This document shows positions 5,419 through 12,231 of a stretch of 64,000 nt of DNA, piece after piece. The notes beneath the pieces are model-generated. The model was not told the origin of the DNA. It did no database searches and was given only the letters and a program-made list of their open reading frames with translations. The number at the start of each line of letters is the position of its first letter. Position 1 is the stretch's first letter. This DNA is from a bacterium. GTDB taxonomy: Bacteria > Zhuqueibacterota > Zhuqueibacteria > Residuimicrobiales > Krinioviventaceae. The translations under genes were made by a program, and so were the position numbers. Location of the stretch: NCBI GenBank assembly GCA_963693055.1, contig OY843751.1, forward strand, positions 5,632,001 to 5,696,000, read 5' to 3'.

Positions 5419-5434
5419 TTGGTATACCATTTGC
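5419..5434 (+). promoter_or_regulatory. Sigma54 (-24/-12) promoter
   Basis: TTGGTATACCATTTGC: GG(5421-22)-N10-GC(5433-34), close to TGGCAC-N5-TTGC. Confidence 0.75.
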
Positions 5435-5460
5435 CTTTTAACGGTCAAACATTGTATAAC

Positions 5461-6570
5461 ATGACTAAAAAGAGCATTCGAATAATGAATAATACGAATA
5501 CATTGGTTAACTTGATTTCAGATATCTGTAATGGTAGCTATTGCCAGGCACAGCTTGTGCAATTCATCAACCTTACAAAAAAAATATCCCTGGGATATTT
5601 GAAATACCAGGAAGTAATTGGTAAACGTATTTCAGGTGAACGCAGTGAATCCTATTCTGAGCTGGATGATGTGGCACTGGATTGTATTGCCGAGTTGTTC
5701 AGTGGAGATGGCAATGGATGTTTTCCTCAATTACAGAAATATTATGAACCCTTTCTGAGTGAAGCCAACATGACAGATGCAGATATTCTGGCCCAAACCC
5801 GTCGGTTGGTTGTACGCAAGACCAAGCAAGAGCTGTCACGAATTTTTCGCGAACGTGACCCTGAAGGCGCCAAGATTGTTCGTAACATCAAGGTCGCCAT
5901 TCGCAGCTCGGAAAAACTAGACATGTTTAGAGATCTGGGCAAAGAATTTGTTTTTTACAAACAAGGTATTGATATTCGCAATGAAGGTCCCGCAAATCCG
6001 GATGTGATCTCAGAATACCTGAGACGCGAATCTTCTCCCATGCCCGAAGATGTACTGCACGCACGCTTTGTTGATGTTTATAGTCCAAATGACTCTATTT
6101 CCGGTGCTATCAAAAAACTATTAAAAACGGTACATGAACTGGATGATTACCAGAACTTTTTAGCAATGGATGTTATTGTTAAACTGATCCGAAACATCAA
6201 GTTTAGTGTTTTTCGTGAAAAACTTGCCGCTGAAGACAAGGTTCCCACTCCTCTCGATCAATTGGAATCACAGGAAATTGAAAGTTATGTTAACGTGGTA
6301 ATGGATCAGGTTAACAGCAAAATCGATAAATTATACATCGGTTCTGGCAAATTGAGCCAAGACAGAGCCAGAATTTACTCTATGGCCCTACGAGATGTTT
6401 TGTTTGATTTATTGCAGAAAAAAGACAGTTCCAGTTATTATCGTAACCTGAAATACTATTTACCTGATCTAACCCAGTCAGATTATAGAAAAAATGAACG
6501 GACGATTTTTGAATATTTGGCCAAAGTTGCCAAGAAAAATTTTAGAAATCACTTGAAAGCTTTATTATAA
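5461..6570 (+). CDS. Hypothetical protein; putative highly divergent ECF-like sigma factor (start ATG 5461 or 5485)
   Basis: ELDDVALDCIAELF and ILAQTRRLVVRKTKQELSRIFRE resemble sigma region 2; LSQDRARIYSM weakly resembles the start of region 4; followed by a ZAS gene. The ORF-track TTG start lies inside the sigma54 promoter. Confidence 0.5.
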   Translation: MTKKSIRIMNNTNTLVNLISDICNGSYCQAQLVQFINLTKKISLGYLKYQEVIGKRISGERSESYSELDDVALDCIAELFSGDGNGCFPQLQKYYEPFLSEANMTDADILAQTRRLVVRKTKQELSRIFRERDPEGAKIVRNIKVAIRSSEKLDMFRDLGKEFVFYKQGIDIRNEGPANPDVISEYLRRESSPMPEDVLHARFVDVYSPNDSISGAIKKLLKTVHELDDYQNFLAMDVIVKLIRNIKFSVFREKLAAEDKVPTPLDQLESQEIESYVNVVMDQVNSKIDKLYIGSGKLSQDRARIYSMALRDVLFDLLQKKDSSSYYRNLKYYLPDLTQSDYRKNERTIFEYLAKVAKKNFRNHLKALL

Positions 6571-6637
6571 ATTTCCGTAAAATTAATCGATTGCCTGTAT
6601 GTTATGATTAAAAATATCAAACAAGAGCATAACATAC

Positions 6638-7282
6638 ATGAAAATGTCCAAAACAACCTGTCCTCACTCCCTTCAATATGAAACGTTGTACCTCAACAAC
6701 GAACTGGGAAAGATACTGGTCAACGATCCTGAACACCACCTCTATTCCTGCCCGGACTGTCAAAAATTTATCAGTGATCTTGACGCAATGTATTCTTCTA
6801 TTTTAAACGAAACATCGTATCCCATTACCAACTCTTTACTGGATTTTGTCTGCAAAGTTTCGCCATATTCCAGCTTGAAAGGCTTGTTCTCTTGTACCCC
6901 TGCCCCCAATCACAAAGATAGACATCACAAAATCTATCAAATGCAGGATATCTTTGTGCAGACATCCTTTGATAAAAAAATCCAGTTTAACGATTACAAG
7001 CAAACCATGCAGCAATATCCTTTATCCGTTCGGATATTAACAGACCCTGCAATAGAGTGTGTTTTGCTCTTTTTCTGGAGTAAATCACAAATAGATTTCA
7101 CCAAATGGCGGTTGACAATACCGGGAATTATTTCAGATTACAGTATTTCATCAAGCGGAACAGTCATTATACCCGGCAAAGAGATCAAAGACTTACAAAA
7201 CAAGTCTTTATACTTGCAAAAATATATTAAACCTGTCAGCCCCAAAATGGTAAATAAAATACAGGAATGCATTCAGGCCTAA
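6638..7282 (+). CDS. Zinc-finger (zf-HC2/ZAS) anti-sigma-like protein, soluble
   Basis: N-terminal C...LYLNNEL...EHHLYSCPDC (HxxxCxxC); no obvious TM helix. Confidence 0.6.
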   Translation: MKMSKTTCPHSLQYETLYLNNELGKILVNDPEHHLYSCPDCQKFISDLDAMYSSILNETSYPITNSLLDFVCKVSPYSSLKGLFSCTPAPNHKDRHHKIYQMQDIFVQTSFDKKIQFNDYKQTMQQYPLSVRILTDPAIECVLLFFWSKSQIDFTKWRLTIPGIISDYSISSSGTVIIPGKEIKDLQNKSLYLQKYIKPVSPKMVNKIQECIQA

Positions 7283-7330: not shown

Positions 7331-7357
7331 GCCGGATGTGTTCCGGCTTTTTTTTTT
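7331..7357 (+). terminator. Rho-independent terminator
   Basis: GCCGGA-tgtgt-TCCGGC followed by T10. Confidence 0.85.
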
Positions 7358-7463: not shown

Positions 7464-9220
7464 ATGAAACGCCATAGTCTGATAATCGTCAATAGAGACA
7501 AAAATAACCTTGAAGTGCTAAAAAACAATTTTGTTGAAGCATATTTTGAGGTAGACCTGGCATATAATGATACACAAGCCATGCATATGGTTAGCAAGAA
7601 ACGTTATGATGCCATGCTTACCGAACTGTCTGCTCCGGGTATTGATGGTTACAGCTTGCTGGAAATGATACAAAAATCGGCATTAAACACAGAAACCCCG
7701 GTTATTTTCCTTACTACCAAAAGCGATGTATGGAACCGGGTAAAAAGCTTGCAACTGGGAGCCAAAGACTATATCATTAAACCCATACACGTCAAGGAAC
7801 TTGTAGCACGGGTTAATATGCTCATTGCCAGAATTGAACGAAAAAGTGAAGAAGAGCAGATTGTTAAAAGAAATTTACAGGAAAACTGGAAGATATTTCA
7901 GTATTTGACCTTATCAAAGTCTTTGGTTTGGAAAAAAAGACCGGTATACTCTCTTTATTCAAGTACAATGGATATACAGGGCAAATCTTTTTTGAAAACG
8001 GGAATATTATTAATGCTGGAACTCTTTTACTAAACGGTGAAAAGGCCGTTTTTAAAATGATGACATGGAAAAAGGGGCTTTTTTCCATGCATTTTTGTGA
8101 TATCGACGTTATCGATGAAATCAAAGTAAGCAACCTGGCTATTTTATTGCAAGGAGCGATGAGAATGGAACAATCCGAAAAAATCCAAAACAACCTCCCC
8201 TCTTTGGATTCCATTATTACTACAACGTCCAATTTTCAAAAGATAACAGCCAAACAAGAATTGAAAAACGAATTACAGCAATTCCTGGAACTTTTTGATG
8301 GAAAACGAAGTCTGGGGCAGATTATTGATGACAGCAAATCTGACGAAATTGAAACCCTGCAGCGCATAAAAAAACTTTTAGATATGGGATTTCTGAATAT
8401 CAATAACGACACAGCCAGCATGGAACCCCTGGAATCTATTCAAGAAATTGAACCTCAAAACAACAAATCTTCTAATCCTCTGCTTGATGACTTGCTAACC
8501 GAAAGCGATTCTTATACCGAAAAGGTCCCTGAACCAGATTATAGCGATATTACTACAAATTCATCACCCTTGATGGATCCGTTAAAAAAACCAGTCCCTG
8601 TTGATGTAGCGGTTAAAGAATCACCCGCGGAAGTCTCTGCTGTTCCTGAATATGTTACAGAGGTTGTTGCGGAACAACATACGGAAGAAAAAAGCGACAA
8701 AGAATCTCTACATGCACTGTATCGCCAGGCCAAAGGCAATATTCTGATCATTAGCAAAGATCACACTCAGAGCAAGCACATTGTAGACAATCTGTCAATT
8801 GCCCAACCCGTTCTAAGCAATGTCAACATCCCCAACGTTTCAGATATCTATTTTGGCACGGCTTCATTCAAGGGCAATGCTTATTTGAATCTTACCACAT
8901 TTTCTACCGAAAAAGAATTTGATCCATTGTTAGATTATTTCGCATCAAAAACACTAGGCTATGTATTGCTGGTAGACATACAACGCGCCAACTGGAATTA
9001 TTACCATTACCTGCTCAATGTTTTGCGCAGAAAATTATCAGTGCCCTCTGTTATTGTCATTTCAAACAAAGGACTCGATTCCAATTCCATTACCATTGAC
9101 GGAATACGTTCAAAACTATTGCTAAAAAGCACAGAAAAGATCATGTTCTGTTCAGACTTTAACCAGGCAAACTCTAAAAAAATCATTTTTTCACTGTTTA
9201 AAAACTATTACCATAAATAA
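7464..9220 (+). CDS. Frameshifted REC(pseudo)-DUF4388/PATAN-linker-degenerate MglA/CvnD-like GTPase protein; the frame break at ~7866-7877 may be programmed, a pseudogene lesion or a sequencing error
   Basis: Frame 0 encodes REC up to IVKR; the -1 frame from 7871 reads KFTGKLEDISVFDLIKVFGLEKKTGIL (DUF4388 start, matching the paralog's FKGNLEEMNVVDII) and continues to 9220. Confidence 0.75.
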
Positions 9221-9225
9221 TAACA

Positions 9226-10416
9226 ATGCTATCAAGACCAGACAATAAAAAATCAATTCTTATTATTGATCAACCCGGGCCTGAATTGGATCAGCTCATC
9301 CAAAACTTGCAGGAAACCCGGTTACAGGTAGTACATATTGAAGACAGTCAAAAAGCCTGTGATTATTGTCTGCGCAATCAACCCGCAGTTATTATTACCG
9401 AACTGGCTTTTCCCAATTTTAGCGGAATACAATTTTTTAGACAAATTAAAAGCAACTTTATTACCAGCCAGATCCCTGTCATTGTTACCACCAAAGAGCC
9501 TCAGCTAGATGACCGCATCAAAAGCATGCAAATGGGTATTGATGACTATATAGTAAAGCCATATCATCCCGAAGAAGTTGTAGCCAGGGTCCATATCCTT
9601 TTAAATGAAGTTAAATCTTTGGACAAAAACAATACGGTTTTATCTCATGGATTCAAGGGCAATCTTGAAGAGATGAATGTTGTTGACATCATTAAAGCCA
9701 TGGAATTGGGTAAAATGTCCGGTATTATTTATCTAAACCGTGGGTTCAAAGAAGGTCAGATATTTATCAACCAGGGTCAAATCATTGACGCATTGATAGA
9801 AGGTTTTGAACCCGAACAAGCGCTTTCTCACATGTTGACCTGGTTAGAGGGTTCATTCTGGGTTTCTCTGCAAAATATAGATCGTAATAAAATGATCAGC
9901 ACCAACAATAAACATATTCTCTCTCATGGAACCAAAATGATCCAAAAATGGCGCAACATTGCTCGGCAGCTTCCTCCCATGAACACATCTCTTAAAACCA
10001 GCGATTCCGCGTCTGGCAGACCGGTTTCACCAATTGAAAAACAAATGCTGAATCACTACCATCAGCCCAAAACCATTATGCAGGGGATTGAAGAAAGCAA
10101 GCTCGACGATATTCATGCACTTGAATTGATTCGGGGACTGCTATCCAAAGGTCTTTTGGTTGCCAGACATGCACATTCAAACGCAGATGACCCTTTTGCA
10201 AAAATTGTTTTTGAACAGTTACAAAAAGAAGTAAACCAACAAAAAGAAACCTTTTCCGACATTACCTCTTATTTTATGCGAAATGCAGACAATACAACTC
10301 AAAGTACAGAGGGAGCTTTACTAAAACCGGAATATTCTAAAAACTCCAAAAAACCCTACAAAGTCTACTTGTCTCTTTCAGACTTGAAACGCATTAAAAA
10401 CAAATTATCTCAATAG
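9226..10416 (+). CDS. REC(pseudo)-DUF4388/PATAN domain protein
   Basis: REC with IITELAFP and GIDDYIVKP; GFKGNLEEMNVVDII...SGIIYL...GQIFINQGQIIDA...WLEGSF. Confidence 0.8.
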   Translation: MLSRPDNKKSILIIDQPGPELDQLIQNLQETRLQVVHIEDSQKACDYCLRNQPAVIITELAFPNFSGIQFFRQIKSNFITSQIPVIVTTKEPQLDDRIKSMQMGIDDYIVKPYHPEEVVARVHILLNEVKSLDKNNTVLSHGFKGNLEEMNVVDIIKAMELGKMSGIIYLNRGFKEGQIFINQGQIIDALIEGFEPEQALSHMLTWLEGSFWVSLQNIDRNKMISTNNKHILSHGTKMIQKWRNIARQLPPMNTSLKTSDSASGRPVSPIEKQMLNHYHQPKTIMQGIEESKLDDIHALELIRGLLSKGLLVARHAHSNADDPFAKIVFEQLQKEVNQQKETFSDITSYFMRNADNTTQSTEGALLKPEYSKNSKKPYKVYLSLSDLKRIKNKLSQ

Positions 10417-10430
10417 ACGGGGCACTTTTA

Positions 10431-10928
10431 ATGAAAGTCGGTGAAATTCTGGTTGTGGGATCAAGCGGAACATCACATCCCAATATCTTGCATGCAGTTT
10501 GTGATCAGGTCATGAAGTCTGATCAGGAAATTTTATTTGGAAAACTTGGCATTGGTCCTGAACTGACATTGTTTTTATATGCCATTACATCCAACAGAAA
10601 CAAGGCAACCATTGCCTGGGACCTCATCGCAAGGAAAATGATTGGTTCCATTATTGTTTTTGACTGGAATAATACGGAATCTTTTGAAAATGCAAAACAC
10701 AATTTGAGCTTGTTCAACCGAAAATTTGATGCCCCCTGCATTTTAGCAGCAGATGTAAAAAATAATCCTTTACCGGTTAATCCCAAAATTGTCAATCCTT
10801 TTGTTTCATTATCTCCCAAGGAAAAATTTAAATTTTTTAATGGTAGAAACCCTAAAAGTATAAAATCTCTATTGATATCGCTAACAGATGTAATAAGTGC
10901 GTATGCGTATCAGGATGAAATCGTATGA
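10431..10928 (+). CDS. Small GTPase-fold protein (MglA/CvnD-like) with degenerate P-loop
   Basis: ILVVGSSGTSHP (no GKT), FGKLGIGPELTLFLY, WDLIARKMIGSIIVFD...ESFENAK. Confidence 0.65.
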   Translation: MKVGEILVVGSSGTSHPNILHAVCDQVMKSDQEILFGKLGIGPELTLFLYAITSNRNKATIAWDLIARKMIGSIIVFDWNNTESFENAKHNLSLFNRKFDAPCILAADVKNNPLPVNPKIVNPFVSLSPKEKFKFFNGRNPKSIKSLLISLTDVISAYAYQDEIV

Positions 10929-11269
10929 CAAAGCAAAATCCTTTAAAACCAGAGATCAAACTCGAGATTCTAAAGCGCATCATCAAGGCAGAACCAGTTG
11001 GACCAATGATAGACGCCTTAAATCCGCACGAGATCATCCAGGTACACCGATTTGTACTCGAACGGGCCATGGATTTTGGTAAAGCCATCAAAGGTCCATC
11101 CTTTTCCAGCAGTGATATTACCAAATACATCAAGCCAATAAATTATGAAAATTTTGAAACCTCCGGTTCAGTAGCAGGTGACAAAAATCTGCTGGCAGCT
11201 CTGGAAACCACCCGCAAGCAAATTGATATCATTGTTAAAATTGCCCACCAATATGCAAAAATGGGATAA
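10925..11269 (+). CDS. Hypothetical helical protein, translationally coupled to the upstream gene
   Basis: 114-aa ORF with ATGA overlap. Confidence 0.65.
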   Translation: MTKQNPLKPEIKLEILKRIIKAEPVGPMIDALNPHEIIQVHRFVLERAMDFGKAIKGPSFSSSDITKYIKPINYENFETSGSVAGDKNLLAALETTRKQIDIIVKIAHQYAKMG

Positions 11270-11310: not shown

Positions 11311-12231
11311 ATGAAAAGGCTATTTTGCATAATACTGTTTCTTGTTATTGGAACCTTAATCCCACCAGGTATTTCTGCTCCAAATGAATTCTTGATCCAG
11401 CAAAAAGAGAAAATCAGAGTCTATTATGCTCTAACAGACTCTGCAAATGCACGTATTGCTCTTGATAAGATGCTCGGATATTATAACGAAATATCTCATG
11501 ACCTTAGTATAAAAAATACTGACACATTACACATATATATCATACCTTCCCGCCAAATGTTCAAAGAAATCATTGACGGCCAACTTCCAAACTGGACGGG
11601 TGCATTTGCGTCACCAGCAAGCAACAGCATGTATGTTCGATCTCCCAATTGGGAGCATGACAGCAATTTCATCACCAACCTGGTCCATGAGCTGCTACAT
11701 TTGGTCATACATGAAAAAATGGGTGTTGCTCGTCTACCCCGCTGGATGGATGAAGGTCTGGCCATCTTTTATTCAAATGATTACAAATGGATATACAGCA
11801 CGGCGTTGTCAAAAGCTTTTGCAACGCGTTCTGTGCTGCCGCTTTATGATATTGATCGTGTTCTCAGTTTTCATCGGGCAAGAGCAGAGCTGGCATATCA
11901 GCAAAGTTACTCCGCTGTACAATATCTTTTGGCTACCTATGACATCGATGCAGTCAGAACAATTCTGTCAAGCCTGCAAAATCATGATTCTATTGACATG
12001 GCTTTTCAAAACGCTACCGGCAGTACATATGCTGTATTTGAAAAAGAGTGGCTTGACTATGCAAAAAAGAAATACAAATGGACCTGGTTGAACGATTTTG
12101 ACTCATATATCTGGACACTTATTATAATACTCTTCTTTATAGCAGGAATTGTTATAAGAATTCGTAACAGAAAAAAACTCGCAGAATGGGAAAAAATACC
12201 TCCCGACATTGAACTGTTAGATGAAGAATAA
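11311..12231 (+). CDS. Peptidase MA-family zinc metallopeptidase with signal peptide and C-terminal TM anchor
   Basis: HELLH...PRWMDEGLA...AYQQS; hydrophobic N- and C-termini. Confidence 0.85.
   Translation: MKRLFCIILFLVIGTLIPPGISAPNEFLIQQKEKIRVYYALTDSANARIALDKMLGYYNEISHDLSIKNTDTLHIYIIPSRQMFKEIIDGQLPNWTGAFASPASNSMYVRSPNWEHDSNFITNLVHELLHLVIHEKMGVARLPRWMDEGLAIFYSNDYKWIYSTALSKAFATRSVLPLYDIDRVLSFHRARAELAYQQSYSAVQYLLATYDIDAVRTILSSLQNHDSIDMAFQNATGSTYAVFEKEWLDYAKKKYKWTWLNDFDSYIWTLIIILFFIAGIVIRIRNRKKLAEWEKIPPDIELLDEE

Follow-up and report, generated by a model that had tools for sequence, protein, structure and literature searches.

Can receiver domains and small-GTPase folds that have lost the residues of their chemistry still form a conserved system? 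This question is raised by a four-gene operon in the 64,000-nucleotide stretch of contig OY843751.1 (assembly GCA_963693055.1, Zhuqueibacterota) analysed here, which we call the window. The genes lie on the plus strand in the order RPG (REC-DUF4388-G1), RP (REC-DUF4388-tail), the stand-alone G2, and the small gene X. A first-pass annotation had described the range 7464..10928 as a module of pseudoenzymes; this range holds RPG, RP, and G2 but omits gene X. We found that the module is a real, conserved, and class-wide set of pseudoenzymes. The operon probably encodes a protein scaffold that works independently of nucleotide and phosphorylation, with G2 predicted to dock on the tail helix of RP.

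Motif loss in the receiver and G domains

The receivers were examined in both proteins. RPG and RP each matched REC (PF00072) and DUF4388 (PF14332) above the Pfam cut-offs, and the proposed fusion of both receivers to DUF4388/PATAN therefore stands. Glu occupies the phospho-Asp position in receiver A of RPG (E54) and in receiver B of RP (E59), and the motifs quoted for this replacement and for the eroded acidic pockets (AMLTELSAPG, IITELAFPN, IVNRD, and IIDQP) were found as stated. Both proteins can thus be classed as putative pseudo-receivers, that is, REC domains without the phospho-Asp. Motifs were then tabulated for 79 loci, 71 in the class of the window and 8 in other classes of the phylum. 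Within the class, receiver A has Glu at 67 of 71 loci and Asp at 4, and receiver B has Glu at 51, Asp at 11, and another residue at 9. In the alignment A4 of receiver A, Glu and a Lys are invariant (40/40 each), a Thr/Ser is kept in 38/40, and the second pocket Asp, which binds metal, is found in 1/40. At all eight loci of the other classes (8/8), receiver A combines Asp with a DD pocket. Bacterial pseudo-receivers in general most often have Glu in place of the phospho-Asp and have usually lost the second Asp of the acidic pocket as well (PMC12632262); the receivers alone are ordinary in this respect, and what sets them apart is that they are paired with dead G folds. As a separate observation, four g17 genomes that lack G2 (L099-L102) again have Asp at the phospho position of receiver A.

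The two G domains were predicted by AlphaFold2 with a mean predicted local distance difference test (pLDDT) of 90.8 and 90.9 (about 91 each), and the best Foldseek matches of G1 and G2 were Rab, Arf, and MglA over the whole length (E about 1e-7 to 1e-6). When compared with Myxococcus xanthus MglA (5ymx) in VIA, G1 gave Z 13.6 and a root-mean-square deviation (rmsd) of 3.3 with 160 residues aligned, and G2 gave Z 13.4 and rmsd 3.6 with 155 aligned. G1 and G2 are thus predicted to adopt Ras-like G-domain folds. However, the Rab and Arf rows were tied with the MglA row or up to 1.8 Z higher; because the fold search cannot separate MglA from Rab/Arf, the MglA ancestry of both domains rests on sequence.

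The motifs GxxxxGK[ST], PGQ, and NKxD are absent from G1 and G2 of the window. The P-loop position reads SKDHTQSK in G1 and GSSGTSHP in G2, that of G3 (GTPGQ) reads TTFSTE and YAITSN, and that of G4 ([NT]KxD or NxFD) reads SNKG and AADV, respectively; the switch I region is shortened in both. Among the invariant G1 columns of the class, no conserved substitute for the P-loop was seen. Pfam gave nothing for G2 of the window, and Ras appeared in 2/40 G2 members below significance. The first-pass annotation had read both domains as MglA/CvnD-like G folds without P-loop and PGQ switch. The predicted folds and the motif scan bear this out, and the C-terminal motifs that it quoted for gene 1 (RPG) and for the protein starting at 10431 (G2) are present.

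Profile comparison of G1 with G2 gave a probability of 98.9%, indicating that the two are paralogs, in line with the duplication proposed earlier. The G2 profile matched 496 of 1.84 billion representatives. Among the best 150 of these 496, the top 59 have no P-loop and many lower ones are intact GTPGQ-type GTPases. Three intact GTPGQ-type proteins in genomes of the phylum were also matched, and neither the G1 nor the G2 profile matched the resident group-1 MglA. Intact GTPases of this type constitute groups 2-5 of MglA, conservon CvnD included (Wuichet and Søgaard-Andersen, PMC4316618). The nearest intact relatives of G1 and G2 thus appear to be the GTPGQ-type (group 2-5/CvnD) MglA proteins and not the resident group-1 MglA. 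In an unrooted tree, G1 and G2 each fell on their own side of a well-supported branch, and the resident MglA, on a long branch, was not placed. A word-index homolog search with G2 returned 2 proteins only. Further P-loop-less G2-like groups of 153-165 amino acids (P0069, P0087, P0103 and P0063, P0075, P0078) branch with G2, and the G2 family may therefore reach beyond the sampled phylum. G1-like dead G domains also occur in frame with an ABC-ATPase-like protein (G104, L065:4703-6112) and a helicase-like protein (G098, L108:4767-7769), either as real fusions or as assembly chimeras.

The distribution of the module was then determined. G2 matches were found in 51/61 sampled relatives, and RPG followed by RP lies upstream in 40/40 loci fetched around such matches, these loci being chosen by the presence of G2. 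In 133 genomes of the phylum, the G1 profile matched 107 and the G2 profile 100, two of them solely via G1 (98 with G2); the families f18-f24 matched neither. The source recorded for one G2 homolog is 'candidate division KSB1 bacterium'. The operon probably belongs to uncultured bacteria of KSB1 type. A GTDB pattern scan with RPG of G001, a genome of the same genus as the window, returned G001 alone. GxxxxGK[ST] is present in 0/71 G1 and 0/64 G2 sequences of the class, whereas other classes have it in 6/8 G1 and 0/6 G2 sequences; G3 and G4 are absent from all six of these outgroup G1 domains that were aligned. P0127 (source name Edwardsbacteria) has the arrangement REC(Asp)-DUF4388-G with an intact P-loop and NKSD; a metagenome scan with P0127 gave 59 loci, all matching generic REC stretches only. 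The ratio of nonsynonymous to synonymous substitution rates (dN/dS, Nei-Gojobori) between the window and G001 was 0.014 for receiver A, 0.009 for G1, 0 for receiver B, 0.028 for G2, and 0.022 for X. Across 13 other pairs, in which dS was often saturated, it was 0.05-0.26 for G1 (7 estimable) and 0.06-0.43 for G2 (12 estimable).

These values, far below 1, together with the class-wide fixation of the losses, show that motif loss in the class is under purifying selection, a check that the first-pass annotation had called for. Since the other classes keep the receiver A Asp and mostly the G1 P-loop, the all-dead state belongs to the class level, and since outgroup loci and P0127 retain Asp and P-loop motifs, the loss was stepwise and became fixed at that level. 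Judged from these sequences, the all-dead state is a derived trait of the whole class; it is neither a case of local decay nor shared by the entire family. The label of an all-pseudoenzyme module accordingly holds for the P-loops within the class, but not for the other classes or for every receiver B.

Two explanations bear directly on these losses. One is local decay or an assembly artefact. RPG is indeed broken into two frames near 7865-7873 in this assembly, and one genome (G010) holds a cut-off RPG remnant without RP or G2. However, an extra A behind 7865 was found in contigs of all four read sets aligned to the assembly, three from one sample (possibly the assembly source) and one from another strain, and RPG of G001 is in one unbroken frame. 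The frameshift is therefore an assembly error, and the fused reading of gene 1 given earlier was right. The annotation had also held that orthologs keeping the Asp and P-loops would mean local decay; such orthologs do exist in other classes, but the loss is class-wide. With the read contigs, the dN/dS values, the number of genomes carrying G1 and G2, and the class-wide tabulation, local decay or artefact is ruled out. The other explanation is that G1 still senses nucleotide or phosphate in a divergent way and that receiver A takes in live signals, so that the module would be a regulated switch with non-canonical motifs. The DD pocket and Asp of receiver A and the GxxxxGK[ST] of G1 in other classes, and the Asp kept within the class at 4 loci in receiver A and 11 in receiver B, speak for it. 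Even the outgroup G1, however, is without G3 and G4, the P-loop is missing in 71/71 loci of the class with no conserved substitute, and the second Asp of receiver A is almost always gone. We consider such a live switch improbable.

The G2 protein and the C-terminal tail of RP

RP ends in a conserved helix with the consensus LxKxELLxIRxKL. G2 and this tail motif occur together in 70 of the 79 loci, neither occurs in 9, and one alone in none. The tail profile was built from 44 of the 70 tail-bearing loci, and 26 are independent of it. The nine loci without G2 and tail belong to the genera g14, g17, and g69 of three families; RPG and RP remain in all of them, and all nine genomes keep MglA. On account of this joint presence and loss, G2 and the tail were chosen for complex prediction. 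The pair of G2 and the C-terminal 32 residues of RP scored 0.81, as against 0.01 for the best of 3 controls; the score mark is reached by 116/157 solved pairs and 2/215 mismatched pairs. The runs agreed in at least 87% of the contacts, and the pLDDT of the partner was at least 69. The prediction supports binding of the RP tail by G2.

The predicted contacts lie on the β2-β3 hairpin (39-47) and α5 (145-160) of G2, away from the nucleotide site. In M. xanthus, the C-terminal helix of MglB binds MglA at the α5/β2/β2-β3 pocket, where the helix is acidic and α5 is basic (PMC6785124). The likeness is that a flexible C-terminal helix is predicted on α5, β2, and the β2-β3 loop here as well. In contrast to MglB, the RP helix comes from a receiver-PATAN protein and not from a Roadblock dimer, it is basic and not acidic, and in G2 there would likely be no nucleotide exchange left to regulate. 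Asp153 of G2 is opposite Arg/Lys65 of the tail, a D-R/K combination found in 31/45 pairs. The variability of G2 was 2.02 bits at the interface, 2.31 for the domain mean, and 2.92 in the P-loop columns. Covariation between G2 and the tail, calculated as mutual information with average product correction for 65 pairs (effective number of sequences, 59), was weak with a best z of 3.2. In P0127, a tail-like motif lies 24 residues ahead of the G domain (per-window p 6.5e-5), which fits RP and G2 as a split form. No tail-like motif was found before G1 in RPG, where the best score was at most 2.9 bits in 39/40.

Several points weigh against the docking and the scaffold drawn from it. As many as 44 of the 70 tail matches follow from how the profile was built, the losses amount to only three events in related genomes, and at one of the nine loss loci (L109) the contig breaks off. 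Because the pocket is the same, resemblance to the solved MglA-MglB complex may account for part of the score, and the calibration counts apply only roughly to the alignments used here. The P0127 motif is weak (4.4 bits) and was noticed post hoc. For G1, the receivers, and the PATAN domains, the analysis revealed no partner. Moreover, G1 retains GK[ST] in the outgroup, and the absence of motifs is no proof that nucleotide binding is lost.

Separate observations were made on the 3' part of RP. In family f2, a run of A10-A11 directly precedes the tail in all nine G2-bearing genomes examined (L032:7590-7629, L036, L048, L063, L019, L033, L030, L031, and L038). Six of these need one additional A to read into the G2-binding helix and otherwise meet a stop 2-3 codons on; three are in frame, and loss of one A would lead to a stop within 3 codons. 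The run is a candidate for programmed slippage that would give tailed and tail-less RP, or else a shared assembly error; no such run precedes the RP tail in the window. The RP linkers before the tail contain repeated ERR/DRR motifs in L035, L037, L039, L041, L045, L047, L050, L054, and L057, which may resemble the RxxxR motifs that bind cyclic di-GMP.

Features of the operon and neighbouring genes

The coordinates of the features are summarized in Table 1. The terminator-like hairpin upstream of RPG was found by consensus match only, 10 such sites being found against 4.9±2.2 in shuffles; as it would end the upstream genes, the module likely starts on its own transcript. Promoter-like sites were not more frequent than expected by chance.

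Table 1 Features of the operon in the window.
Feature	Position	Strand	Description
Terminator-like hairpin and T run	7331..7357	+	Would close upstream genes; consensus match
RPG gene	7464..9220	+	Pseudo-receiver A, DUF4388/PATAN, helical domain, variable linker, dead G fold G1
Glu54 of RPG	7623..7625	+	Glu codon at phospho-Asp position of receiver A
DUF4388/PATAN of RPG	7877..8173	+	Pfam
G1	8729..9217	+	Predicted small-GTPase fold without P-loop, G3, G4
RP gene	9226..10416	+	396 amino acids; pseudo-receiver B, DUF4388, helical domain, YSRIASFF-type helix, linker, C-terminal tail helix
Glu59 of RP	9400..9402	+	Glu codon at phospho-Asp position of receiver B
DUF4388/PATAN of RP	9655..9954	+	Pfam
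Conserved short helix, RP 343-352 (YSRIASFF-type)	10252..10281	+	Similar stretch persists where G2 is lost
RP C-terminal tail motif	10357..10407	+	Predicted G2 ligand
G2	10431..10928	+	Stand-alone, 165 amino acids; predicted small-GTPase fold without P-loop, G3, G4
Gene X	10925..11269	+	114-amino-acid accessory protein; start overlaps G2 stop (ATGA)

RPG has 585 amino acids in G001. The two DUF4388 matches in RPG and RP are the only ones in the whole genome, and the domain following DUF4388 gave weak winged-helix matches only, so that it may or may not bind DNA or act like CvnC. The CvnC (DUF742) profile matched weakly in 1/40 RP members (E 0.058) and in 0/41 isolated segments, and NCBIfam matches to RPG were driven by the receiver and below the cut-off. 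Gene X lies beside G2 in 47/70 loci, is fused to it in G006, and never occurs without it. Most X orthologs have a four-Cys motif, which is lost in the lineage of the window; neither X nor G2 of the window matched a Pfam family, and X had no match above 0.76 in the atlas.

Two conserved genes (5419-7282) lie between a sigma-54 regulator gene and RPG. The first product (361-383 amino acids) belongs to no Pfam family and is near unnamed atlas clusters from Calditrichota, Ignavibacteriota, and Bacteroidota; the second (214 amino acids) has an N-terminal Cys/His motif. The two may be a sigma/anti-sigma pair. Downstream of the module, a peptidase-MA-like gene (11311-12231) with an HELLH motif and hydrophobic ends is found in 37/40 loci; at loci that have lost G2 and X it directly follows RP, in G010 it comes after the RPG remnant, and it was not found beside the module in six loci checked from other classes.

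Proposed role and relation to known systems

The following mechanism would account for the module. The dead G fold G2 would grip the C-terminal helix of RP at the α5/β2/β2-β3 pocket, and this docking would tether G2, and probably X too, to the receiver-PATAN unit of RP, while RPG would carry its own dead G fold within the same chain. The invariant Glu of receiver A, with the conserved Thr/Ser and Lys, may keep an on-like state. The ancestor may have been an active REC(Asp)-PATAN-GTPase of GTPGQ-type MglA origin that was duplicated, one copy then splitting into RP and G2. Chemistry would have been lost stepwise, in G2 first, then G3 and G4 of G1, and last, in this class, the G1 P-loop and the receiver A Asp. 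The G2-tail prediction and the class-wide motif loss point to the scaffold role suggested in the first-pass annotation. From the ancestry of the parts, a scaffold at the envelope or pole is conceivable; tentatively, the PATAN domains would serve as the output by positioning machinery of the envelope or pole, with type IV pili as a possible but not obligatory target.

A second role named in that annotation was a decoy for the MglAB of the genome. The G folds would then tie up MglB or MglA effectors, or the RP tail would target the allosteric pocket of MglA. An intact mglB-mglA locus does exist: the sole Robl_LC7 match in the genome lies in it about 490 kb outside the window, confirming that the module has no Roadblock/MglB gene of its own, and the resident MglA has the motifs GPGLGGKT, TIPGQ, and NKRD. 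Furthermore, MglA is present in 103/107 G1-positive genomes, and the pocket predicted on G2 corresponds to the MglB helix site on MglA. However, MglA occurs in 123/133 genomes, including 18/24 in families without the module, and since it is near-universal, the co-occurrence says little. The G1 and G2 profiles match GTPGQ-type proteins and miss the resident MglA, switch I is shortened, the basic helix and acidic α5 have the opposite charges to those of MglB and MglA, and the tail disappears with G2 while MglA remains. The decoy is therefore unlikely, and we do not retain it. A dedicated PatA-like regulator of the type IV pilus or type II secretion (T2SS) motor, with PATAN on PilB/PilC and the dead G folds as adaptors, was also weighed. 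PATAN binds PilB1 and PilC in Synechocystis (10.1101/2021.06.11.447907), and the genome has a pilA-like/pilC/pilB/pilT/pilM-like cluster. Against this, and also to some extent against the scaffold with its possible pilus target, 20 of 42 module-bearing genomes tested have no PilT over the cut-off; the 42 were drawn from 45 that carry the module but not the PilT of the window lineage, and the genomes are incomplete assemblies. Two of five tested genomes, G003 (96% complete) and G116 (95%), keep the module without a T2SSE-family match over the cut-off, and PilT is present in 23/24 genomes without the module. The pilus link is not obligate, and a dedicated pilus regulator seems rather doubtful.

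Two observations concern these systems in their own right. The type IV pilus-like cluster L106 (G000:C1:3640000-3655400) encodes a divergent PilT just over the family cut-off, of a type confined to part of one class, and has a regulator/sensor-like gene pair inside. At L021:2490-2924, a 144-amino-acid gene following mglA appears Roadblock-like by eye and has no Pfam match; it may be MglC-like.

The scaffold reading was compared with known systems. Group 2-5 MglA/CvnD proteins share the predicted fold and the core motifs FGR-x-I..L-x-LYG, W, and MLG, whereas the module lacks P-loop, G3, and G4 and is duplicated, one copy being fused to REC-PATAN (PMC4316618). No MglB was found within four genes of the module, and a scan of nine local proteins revealed no histidine kinase, although orphan MglAs exist (PMC4316618). 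Relative to conservons, with parts as given in PMC13343842, the nine local proteins include no CvnA kinase or CvnB Roadblock. Since the motifs, an adjacent MglB, and a kinase are missing, the module is neither an MglA GTPase nor a conservon member. Cyanobacterial PatA-type PATAN-REC proteins likewise have REC and DUF4388 in one chain, but here REC is N-terminal (the order is reversed), bears Glu, and goes with a G fold, either fused or as a separate partner (10.1101/2021.06.11.447907).

The module would work most like class I pseudoGTPases; its predicted G folds lack the motifs and are maintained by selection. Human AAGAB (PMC12490416) and the p190RhoGAP pseudoGTPase domains are likewise G folds without motifs, and AAGAB engages its partner through the side facing away from the nucleotide pocket, as G2 is predicted to do. 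Those proteins, however, are eukaryotic and of separate origin, and their lack of nucleotide binding was measured, while here it is deduced. PseudoGTPases are stated to occur from bacteria to human in the summary of PMC12490416, and the excerpted review PMC10211241 gives eukaryotic examples. Our literature search, which did not cover subscription journals, found no paper on this operon or on an MglA-derived pseudoGTPase, and the main text of the Zhuqueibacterota paper PMC11683472 does not mention MglA or GTPase. New here are the predicted docking of G2 on the tail, the joint loss of the two, and the putatively active forms in the outgroup. The interest is limited by the uncultured hosts and by each part being a known domain.

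Taken together, the findings leave it evenly balanced whether these are class-wide bacterial pseudoGTPases in which an MglA-derived fold dropped its switch and kept the allosteric pocket as a constitutive dock, with intermediates showing the order of loss and one family toggling the helix by poly-A slippage. The pseudoGTPases characterised in the cited literature are eukaryotic; here, a whole bacterial class keeps two. If the docking is true, the pocket for the MglB helix on MglA, a proposed allosteric exchange site, outlives the switch as a plain binding surface. The graded series from P0127 through the outgroup RPG to this class would make it possible to follow how a signalling enzyme becomes a scaffold.

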